Shown piece by piece: positions 3,814 to 4,153 of a DNA stretch of 59,882 nt. Origin of the DNA: Candidatus Shapirobacteria bacterium (lineage in GTDB: Bacteria; Patescibacteriota; Microgenomatia; 0-14-0-10-38-17); the NCBI GenBank assembly GCA_028695445.1, contig JAQVIV010000002.1, positions 1 through 59,882 on the forward strand. Direction: 5' to 3'. How positions within the stretch are numbered: position 1 is the first letter of the stretch; each line of letters starts with the position of its first letter. The notes under the pieces were generated by a model. It saw only the letters and a program-made list of their open reading frames with translations. It ran no database searches and was not told the DNA's origin. The translations under genes were made by a program, and so were the position numbers.

Positions 3814-4153
3814 CGATTGACAGTCCAAAATTAAAAGTTAAAAGCTAAAAGTTAGGAAAAATAAAAAATTCTTTAATAAATTACTCTAATTAACCTAATT
3901 ATTCTAATTACTTTAATGAAATCCCAAAAATACCAAAGACCCAATTAAATTTTAGAAATTGGGAATTGGGATTTATTTAGGTTAATTAGGTCAATTAAAA
4001 CAATTAGAAATTAAGTAAGGGATTGTTTGTTATAATAAAGCAGATCTTAATTAACCTAAGGGTCAATTGCTAAATTGTTATATTCTTTTTTTAAACATTA
4101 AATCATTAGAAACTGAATAGAAATTAAGAATTTAAAATTAGAAATTAAATAAC
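3814..4153. repeat. mosaic repeat, longest spacer (stutter, module B variant, C arm, module A)
   Basis: aaaagttaaaagctaaaagtta; ctaattattctaattactttaatgaaatcccaaaa...ttgggaattgggattt; caattgctaaattgttat; cattaaatcattagaaactgaatagaaattaagaatttaaaattagaaattaaa. Confidence 0.7.

Follow-up and report, generated by a model that had tools for sequence, protein, structure and literature searches.

The stretch of DNA analysed here (the window, 59,882 nt in all) is contig C29 of a 695-kb, 33-contig, 93.6%-complete assembly of a tiny uncultured bacterium of the candidate phyla radiation (CPR)/Patescibacteria, and it carries an S10-spc-alpha ribosomal-protein operon without L30. Our subject is module A, a repeat of ~50 nt that adjoins the start codons of twelve genes in this window. 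Each copy consists of a core, AAATCATTAGAAATTGAATAG (or TAGACAATAAAAATTGAATAG), followed by three to five tandem heptamers of the type RRAAATT; by eye, A predominates in the aligned copies, followed by T, G being scarce and C nearly absent, in agreement with the A/U-rich character ascribed to the module by the original prediction. Allowing up to three mismatches, the 17-mer AGAAATTAGAAATTAAA occurs 33 times, compared to 1.7 ± 1.4 times in shuffled sequence. All twelve copies that had been proposed were recovered, upstream of the genes for L3, S19, L22, L16, S8, L6, L18, SecY, Adk, L36, S13 and SecF, with 0–12 nt between the end of the module and the start codon. In what follows, G000 denotes the genome of the window, G002, G003 and G004 belong to the same genus, G005 to the same family and G006 to another genus.

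The copies, all on the forward strand, come as solo sense arrays, at the end of longer spacers, or as halves of foldbacks. The copy under study is a solo sense copy at 4101..4153 (nhmmer E = 7e-10) that ends 5 nt before the GTG of rpsS (4154; S19 by Pfam). Other solo copies precede rplC (1092..1143, ATG 1144), with the right arm of another repeat (AACAATTCAGCAATTAAACAATATAACAATG) upstream, and rpsH (8506..8558, reading AAATTAAACAAG-GTG up to the start at 8559), and one at 8961..9014 takes up all of the sequence that separates the rpsH stop codon from the GTG of rplF (9015). The sense copy of rplV (4632..4686, ATG 4687) lies at the 3′ end of a composite spacer of ~250 nt, which recurs with 90% identity upstream of rplP, where the module spans 5995..6049 (ATG 6050) and the orthologous copy of G002 is two heptamers (14 nt) shorter. 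At secY (11175..11230, GTG 11231), complementary AATTTCC heptamers occupy the left end of the spacer (11016-11043), and the G002 orthologue has a shorter module copy with the same 3′ flank. Five foldbacks complete the set, each of ~110 nt and laid out as stop codon, (AATTTCT)n arm, loop, (AGAAATT)n arm, start codon, such that their antisense copies are the left arms. The first (9579..9695) has its antisense arm at 9579-9621, starting 9 nt past the rplF stop, and its sense arm at 9639-9690, or 9639-9695 with the trailing bases up to the rplR ATG (9696). The others lie between the secY stop and the adk ATG at 12614 (12522..12613, sense arm 12562-12613), between the infA stop and the rpmJ ATG at 13665 (13550..13664, sense copy 13616-13664), between the rpmJ stop and the rpsM ATG at 13900 (13785..13899, sense copy 13847-13899), and between the stop of an upstream gene (47936) and the secF ATG at 48028 (47934..48027, sense copy 47984-48027).

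Pfam confirmed the identities of all twelve genes. In eight of them (S19, L22, L16, S8, L18, Adk, S13, L36) the Pfam match runs from ORF (open reading frame) residue 1–6 to profile position 1–3, and in ten (all except rpmJ and secF) the orthologues of relatives align from residue 1, the upstream DNA diverging. By these alignments most of the twelve starts are homology-supported; that of secF is the ORF start alone. Upstream of these codons, as had been noted, a Shine-Dalgarno (SD) sequence of the GGAGG type at normal spacing is missing: GGAGG, GGAG or GAGG does not occur at −17 to −5 of any of the twelve, the most that is seen being AAGG or AGG at −6 to −1. Likewise, none of 25 module-bearing starts genome-wide has GGAG, GAGG or AGGA at −17 to −5.

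The original prediction took this to mean that the module replaces the SD region for a subset of highly expressed genes. If SD-led initiation were the norm here and the module were needed by that subset for its translation, the rest of the genome should look different, and it does not. Outside the window, genes were called with a home-made procedure based on ORFs and codon usage (628 genes, 86% of the genome). Among 352 unambiguous starts, the −17 to −5 region held no SD motif in 92%, a weak one in 5.4% and a strong one in 2.6%, as against 88%, 8.9% and 3.3% at random coding control positions, and a G peak at −12 to −6 was absent across the 628-gene set. Base composition at −20 to −1 is dominated by A (0.38-0.41) and T (0.34-0.35). 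Within the operon itself, the module-less neighbours rplD, rplB, rpsC, rplX, rpsN, rpsE, infA, rpsK and rpsD are likewise without an SD. The SD motifs that do exist are confined to a small class. The prediction had pointed to hup, a 191-aa gene and a 123-aa gene, and their SDs (AAAGGGAGGTGgaaaagaATG, AAAGGAGaaacATG and AAAAGGAGGgctatctatcATG, respectively) are genuine; genes of this kind make up ~2-3% of the genome, and about six have perfect SDs of 8-10 nt such as AAGGAGGTGA, including hup at 33059. In this SD-poor setting, the long SDs belong to hup (33030-33058), two unassigned ORFs (25107-25125 and 20431-20450, both on the reverse strand) and a few others on contigs C10, C28 and C7.

The comparison with the 16S 3′ end that had been proposed could be made in relatives only, because a search of the window's own assembly found no 16S gene, nor does it contain any rRNA. 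In G004 and G005 this end reads GATCACCTCCTTT, with CCUCC kept and the anti-SD hence intact; together with the few perfect SDs, this means that an anti-SD exists and is used by a handful of genes. The intact anti-SD, the few strong SDs and an enrichment of the module genes for ribosomal proteins, EF-G, RpoC, pilins and glycolytic enzymes are what can be said for the module as an SD substitute. Since SDs are lacking genome-wide whether or not a module is present, and the module-less orthologues of relatives lack them too, the module is not an SD replacement for a subset; the genome-wide statistics already contradict the strict form of that idea, and we hold it to be very unlikely. By the same measure, SD-less initiation appears to be the rule in this genome, including the module-less genes of the operon and the orthologues in relatives, and the module is one form of the A/T-rich upstream region common to every gene here. 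The genome also encodes an S1 homologue, a 403-aa ORF on contig C6 with four PF00575 S1 domains. Three to four such domains are typical of CPR bacteria, in which anti-SD loss concerns some Parcubacteria only (Tsurumaki et al. 2022, PMC9297842), a study that says nothing on SD usage in Microgenomates mRNAs. In our literature search on SD usage in CPR, on PF05635 (see below) and on intervening-sequence proteins, this was the only relevant paper, by virtue of its data on the anti-SD and S1 domain numbers, and nothing was found on repeats of this kind.

How firmly is the module tied to start codons? An nhmmer profile built from the twelve window copies retrieved 43 copies from the whole genome (E < 0.01), all 43 intergenic. 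Between 25 and 27 sense copies end no more than 12 nt from a start codon, bearing out the prediction of a shared, portable 5′ region; besides the genes of the window, they precede those for EF-G, RpoC, ProRS, TsaD, GAPDH, a TIM-like protein, a transketolase subunit, two pilins, RuvX and DNA ligase. The lock of sense copies to starts recurs in G002, in G006 and for most copies in other metagenome-assembled genomes (MAGs). Many copies away from starts had been named as an outcome that would speak against the prediction, and this is what we see in part: 14 of the 43 copies are antisense and lie 0-28 nt past a stop codon, and one heptamer array sits between two tRNA genes. None of the 43 places an antisense copy at a start codon.

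Part of this polarity comes for free. As a palindrome is unchanged by inversion, every foldback necessarily shows its pyrimidine-rich arm ahead of the purine-rich one, and the start lock of foldbacks is therefore partly automatic. This does not hold for the 16 solo sense copies, all of which occupy the start-proximal end of spacers of 54-340 nt; under uniform placement the joint probability is ~1e-19, a figure to be read with the caveat that some of the 16 are not independent. Solo arms are moreover skewed toward the sense orientation at starts (16 versus 2 antisense; p = 0.001). A similar bias extends to other short-period repeats: arrays of period 7-9 adjoining starts genome-wide are purine-rich in 50 cases versus 14 (p = 7e-6). 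In the window, 9-mer arrays of the TTAGAACAA type adjoin the starts of rplD (1879-1924) and rpsK (14454-14490), 8-mers of the TAGAAATA type adjoin rplX (7298-7340), and a mini-array (AAAAATTAGAAATTTT, 8226..8248, forward strand) below the threshold of the profile adjoins the rpsN ATG (8249).

An element ending 0–12 nt from starts, and once preceding a tRNA gene, could also be an outward-facing promoter giving rise to leaderless or very short-leader transcripts, and the module does contain TTGAAT or TTGACT followed by A/T-rich heptamers. A sigma-70 scan of positions 600-15000, though, returned no promoter-like site in any sense copy, its total of 38 sites being no enrichment over the 30.2 ± 5.5 of shuffled sequence. 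The distance from TTGAAT to the start codon shifts with the number of heptamers, as in the 14-nt indel between orthologues, and twelve internal promoters in one ribosomal-protein operon are implausible. We consider a promoter function extremely unlikely.

To what family of repeats does the module belong? The str operon on contig C14 is informative in this respect. From rpsL it continues through one foldback to rpsG and through another to fusA; then come an antisense A arm, a 113-aa gene, a sense A arm and finally tuf. The 113-aa protein belongs to PF05635, annotated as '23S rRNA intervening-sequence protein' (E = 3e-17); the cassette flanked by module A spans 2877-3342 of that contig, between fusA and tuf. 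The genome has five PF05635 genes, all of them with inverted arrays on either side, built in each case from a different short unit. One of them lies in the window immediately upstream of the ribosomal-protein operon (250..630, reverse strand; 23S rRNA intervening-sequence (IVS) protein/bAvd-like), with inverted heptamer arrays of a different unit (GATTACC/CGGAAAT-type) at 200-250 and 631-700. The fusA-tuf spacer of G002 holds a PF05635 cassette as well, with 55% protein identity and AATTTCC/GGAAATT arrays, and the spacer upstream of ruvX contains a gene-bearing cassette in G002 and gene-less arms only in G000 (C31:5587-5768; the G002 loci compared are L045 and L054). The A arms around a PF05635 gene and such pairs of gene-bearing and gene-less sites lead us to regard module A as the purine-rich arm of an AT-rich, IVS-like cassette and foldback repeat family. 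The family occurs in three forms, namely foldbacks of ~110 nt, inverted arms around a PF05635 gene, and solo sense arms, and by analogy the foldbacks may relate to the cassettes as miniature inverted-repeat transposable elements (MITEs) do to autonomous elements. The copies are dispersed and intergenic, with presence or absence at orthologous sites (43 copies here; spacers without the module in G002, G003 and G004), as expected of MITE-like repeats, and all of them reside in mRNA or tRNA spacers rather than inside an rRNA helix, where an IVS proper would be found. A comparison of filled and empty orthologous sites revealed no recognisable target-site duplication. The arms are inverted, and they are associated with a PF05635 gene instead of a transposase gene (no search for transposases was made).

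By analogy with rRNA intervening sequences, a role in RNA processing or protein binding could be envisaged. RNase III, which the genome encodes, would cut the foldbacks, so that the polycistronic mRNA falls into pieces with short A-rich 5′ ends, and/or the arrays would bind a trans-acting factor, such as a PF05635 protein, that controls stability or translation. The module A arms around the PF05635 gene in the str operon and the inverted arrays at all five PF05635 genes fit this proposal, as do the array between tRNA genes, where translation is irrelevant, and a congener's 16S gene. The latter, in G004, contains an IVS-like insertion of 187 nt (L018, ~1680-1866) in an early hairpin loop at model position ~190, which has heptamer-like arrays (aattttaagaatttggaattttgaatttgaaatt) and is not module A. 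The predicted hairpins, however, are weak, imperfect and mostly A-U (−9 to −27 kcal/mol and z −0.6 to −3.3 for lengths of 90-120 nt). The rplR foldback (9579..9695), for instance, folds with a minimum free energy (MFE) of −20.1 kcal/mol (z = −1.8), and the infA-rpmJ foldback (13550..13664) reaches z = −3.3. Across 13 foldbacks, compared with a view to G-U asymmetry, the more stable fold is that of the sense RNA in only 8 and that of the antisense RNA in 5, with sums of −223 versus −210 kcal/mol and hence no consistent advantage of sense, and the solo arms, which form the majority at starts, cannot by themselves form an RNase III substrate. A scan of 600-15000 found no intrinsic terminator at any foldback, the stems being nearly all A-U. 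Finally, the arrays of the other four cassettes are barely dispersed (0-2 arrays each), the only dispersed types being AGAAATT and GGAAATT, so that a picture of one protein and one regulon is not general; the notion that each PF05635 paralogue has a dispersed array family of its own was rejected on the same count. Overall, we judge a processing or binding element to be unlikely as the principal explanation. A specific version of it, in which AGAAAUU arrays are putative binding sites of the PF05635 (Avd-like) four-helix-bundle protein encoded between fusA and tuf, is a long shot. If true, the cassette and the gene-less copies would constitute a post-transcriptional regulon in an SD-less CPR bacterium, coupling the translation or stability of ~25 mRNAs, including those for ribosomal proteins, EF-G, RpoC, SecY, pilins and glycolysis, to one trans-acting factor, and the strong conservation of shared copies described below would be explained.

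Comparison with relatives gives a mixed picture. The module is patchily distributed: of 41 related genomes, 3 contain its 31-mer core pattern with up to three mismatches, and across 185,579 species the exact core turns up in ~7 MAGs. Spacers were compared among orthologues by their longest common block and by ungapped comparison anchored at the start. Their lengths vary widely within the genus; the rplR spacer measures 126 nt here versus 11, 21 and 50 nt in G002, G003 and G004, which lack the element at this site, and the rplV spacer 260 nt versus 162, 53 and 33 nt in same-genus genomes. At the infA-rpmJ site, the element is absent from G004. Module-less orthologues of the same genus have short A/T-rich spacers and no SD. 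Where copies are shared by G000 and G002, in turn, they are 94-100% identical: the leader of a gene on contig C27 matches at 93 of 93 nt, the infA-rpmJ foldback at 117 of 125, private variants included, and the rplP module at ~95% apart from a clean indel of two heptamers. Third codon positions of the flanking genes are only 46-65% identical between the two genomes, and non-repeat spacers are unalignable, with common blocks of only 6-15 nt.

These observations bear on the simplest alternative, that foldbacks spread or recombine into short operon spacers as selfish or neutral filler without a role in translation, the last native bases and the start codon being sufficient for initiation. Such filler would be patchy, would come with spacers of variable length and with orthologues that do as well without it and are equally SD-less, and would not improve the accessibility of start codons, all of which we observe. 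Its pyrimidine-arm-first palindrome would place the sense arm next to the start automatically, its antisense arms would be found after stop codons and an array between tRNAs, and unrelated 8-mer and 9-mer arrays would adjoin starts too, as they do. Against filler, selfish copies should decay, whereas the orthologous ones are 94–100% identical next to synonymous sites near saturation; if foldbacks decayed neutrally, either arm should survive with equal frequency, whereas solo arms are almost exclusively sense; and the solo copies in long composite spacers are invariably start-proximal. We therefore hold this alternative to be fairly unlikely. The high conservation suits recognition of a specific sequence better than it suits a generic A/U platform and, being unexplained by either selfish insertion or such a platform, it is the reason why we keep a sequence-specific partner among the rivals.

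A further point against filler is the usage of GTG starts. That rpsS, rpsH, rplF and secY initiate with GTG behind the module was correctly predicted; the predicted total of five non-ATG starts in the operon is less certain, as the starts of some other genes there (rpmC, rpoA, rplQ) are doubtful. Genome-wide, 9 of 25 module-bearing genes start with GTG, compared to 55 of 604 others (odds ratio 5.6, Fisher p = 4e-4). The string AATTAAACARG-GTG, start codon included, is common to rpsH, rplF and a gene on contig C11, and G is more frequent at −3 to −1 of module genes (0.28-0.40) than genome-wide (0.11-0.16). Both rpsS and rpsH, GTG genes with a module here, start with ATG in G002, where the rpsH leader is devoid of the module and the rpsS leader still ends in heptamer-like repeats; the rpsH orthologues of G003 and G004 are also module-less ATG genes. 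Either the duplicated unit may at times include the start codon itself, or genes behind a module may get by with a weaker start.

With regard to RNA structure, solo modules (61-86 nt) are predicted to be essentially unfolded, with MFEs of −1.3 to −1.8 kcal/mol and z-scores of +0.5 to +1.5, most shuffles folding better; the rpsS copy at 4101..4153 (−1.3 kcal/mol, z = +1.5) is one of them. When whole spacers are folded, the module is predicted to stay open at rplC, rplP and rpsH, and to pair with the AATTTCC array at the left end of the composite spacers of rplV and secY. Pairing with 16S rRNA in the manner of an enhancer is unsupported: complementarity between module and 16S was found only inside the 187-nt insertion of the G004 gene, and none in conserved rRNA.

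Taken together, we favour, at about even confidence, a reading of the module as an A-rich leader that is portable, is retained by selection and serves SD-independent initiation, possibly with the help of S1. Since the genome is nearly SD-free, the module genes would initiate in the same SD-independent, A/U-rich, low-structure mode as the remaining genes. The sense module makes up roughly positions −8 to −55 of the leader in at least 25 genes, and the 30S subunit would probably land on this single-stranded A-rich RNA, plausibly aided by the four-domain S1 homologue. The module would be tolerated, and probably selected, only where its orientation and position keep the start codon in A-rich unstructured RNA. 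A terminating ribosome, halting 3-9 nt short of the left arm of a foldback, might open the A-U base of the stem and thereby expose the next start. What the sequences show is the anatomy and census of the repeat, its lock in orientation and position, the genome-wide lack of SDs, the link to PF05635, the lineage-specific presence or absence and the strong conservation of shared copies; a positive contribution of the module to initiation and a part played by S1 are inferred.

Several findings weigh against this leader model. The unpaired probability of the start region in native context does not differ between module genes (0.44-0.48) and 150 others (0.46-0.47; p > 0.6), and in foldbacks the sense arm is partly paired. 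Given that module-less orthologues start without an SD, the module is dispensable, and any benefit it confers is not essential. A generic A/U standby platform should have no need of 94–100% conservation, which points to a sequence-specific partner that the model does not name. Module A copies cluster in one operon, where whole spacers are duplicated (rplV, rplP), and are thus not independent of one another, and the home-made gene calls outside the window are a weakness.

The closest functional parallels come from E. coli and its phages, namely translational enhancers that are A/U-rich and depend on S1, and ribosome standby sites (Boni et al. 1991; Komarova et al. 2002, 2005; the standby model of de Smit and van Duin). 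Shared features are a single-stranded A/U-rich tract ~10-55 nt upstream, an SD that is unneeded or weak, an encoded S1 homologue and the predicted lack of structure in the solo module. The module differs in that it is dispersed in many copies, is composed of exact heptamers behind a defined core at its 5′ end and is 94–100% conserved between species, and the S1 homologue has four domains here and six in E. coli. Genome-wide SD-independent initiation with a retained anti-SD is reported to occur in Bacteroidetes and many cyanobacteria (Nakagawa et al. 2010; Baez et al. 2019). As in those groups, CCUCC is kept (as read in G004 and G005), more than 90% of genes are SD-less, upstream regions are A-rich and a few SDs are very strong; the phylum is a different one.

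As a repeat, the family calls to mind Correia elements (CREE/NEMIS) of Neisseria and ERIC/IRU, RUP, BOX and REP/BIME elements, MITE-like intergenic repeats that can alter expression or be cut by RNase III. It resembles them in its foldbacks (~100-150 nt in this class), co-transcribed with neighbouring genes, near starts and variably present. It departs from them in that a signature combining terminal inverted repeats and target-site duplication was not seen, the arms consist of heptamers in tandem and vary in the number of units, the partner gene is PF05635 and shared copies are strongly conserved. Intervening sequences of 23S rRNA contain a PF05635 (S23p) ORF in Leptospira and Coxiella and are ORF-less in Salmonella. 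Here, too, a PF05635 gene lies between inverted arms capable of forming a stem, gene-less hairpins of ~110 nt exist, RNase III is encoded and a congener's 16S gene has an insertion; the copies are in mRNA spacers instead of rRNA helices, and most start-adjacent ones are single arms. Finally, heterocystous cyanobacteria have short tandemly repeated heptamers (STRR) and small dispersed repeats (Mazel et al. 1990; Elhai et al. 2008), which resemble module A as intergenic arrays of 7-nt units in which small repeats can nest. They are unrelated to it in unit sequence and in lineage, and we know of no lock to start codons described for STRR.

Some further features of the window deserve mention. An 86-aa ORF upstream of rplC (727-987) was considered as rpsJ (S10) and rejected, since Pfam gives no match for it and the genuine rpsJ lies behind tuf on C14. 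The same region contains a promoter-like TTGATA-17-TAGAAT (727-755) and a hairpin resembling a terminator (894-920), and may be an operon leader or attenuator. A 36-nt repeat with a perfect TTGACA overlaps the stops of rplB (3810-3845) and rpsC (5787-5822); heptamers (AAAATTA/AAAGTTA) come next, and a long composite spacer begins at each of the two repeats. The AT-rich composite spacers before rplB, rplV and rplP contain hairpin cores rich in G+C (GCGCGCACTAAAGTGCGC..., CCGCCAGAGGCGG; 2926-2988, 4506-4581 and 5861-5936). An exact direct repeat of 99 nt (19228-19326 and 19358-19456) begins within the 3′ part of a tRNA-Tyr gene (19166-19248) and looks like a duplicated tRNA 3′ end as left by integration. 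The bacterial class A RNase P RNA at 40673-41007 (113.9 bits) is an ordinary feature.

Should the module be only tolerated filler, it would still exemplify how repeat polarity and compact spacers can mimic a start-locked regulatory element. If the leader model is confirmed, a CPR lineage with an intact anti-SD would translate nearly all of its genes, the whole ribosomal-protein superoperon included, without SD pairing, a state for which our literature search found no paper making the claim in Microgenomates. It would also mean that the arm of a mobile IVS-like cassette has been turned into the usual 5′ leader of those genes that are expressed most highly, with its sequence strongly constrained. 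The module would then be a natural, portable region for SD-independent initiation, useful for studies of S1 or standby initiation, and the long-unexplained PF05635 'IVS protein' family would gain a context outside rRNA.

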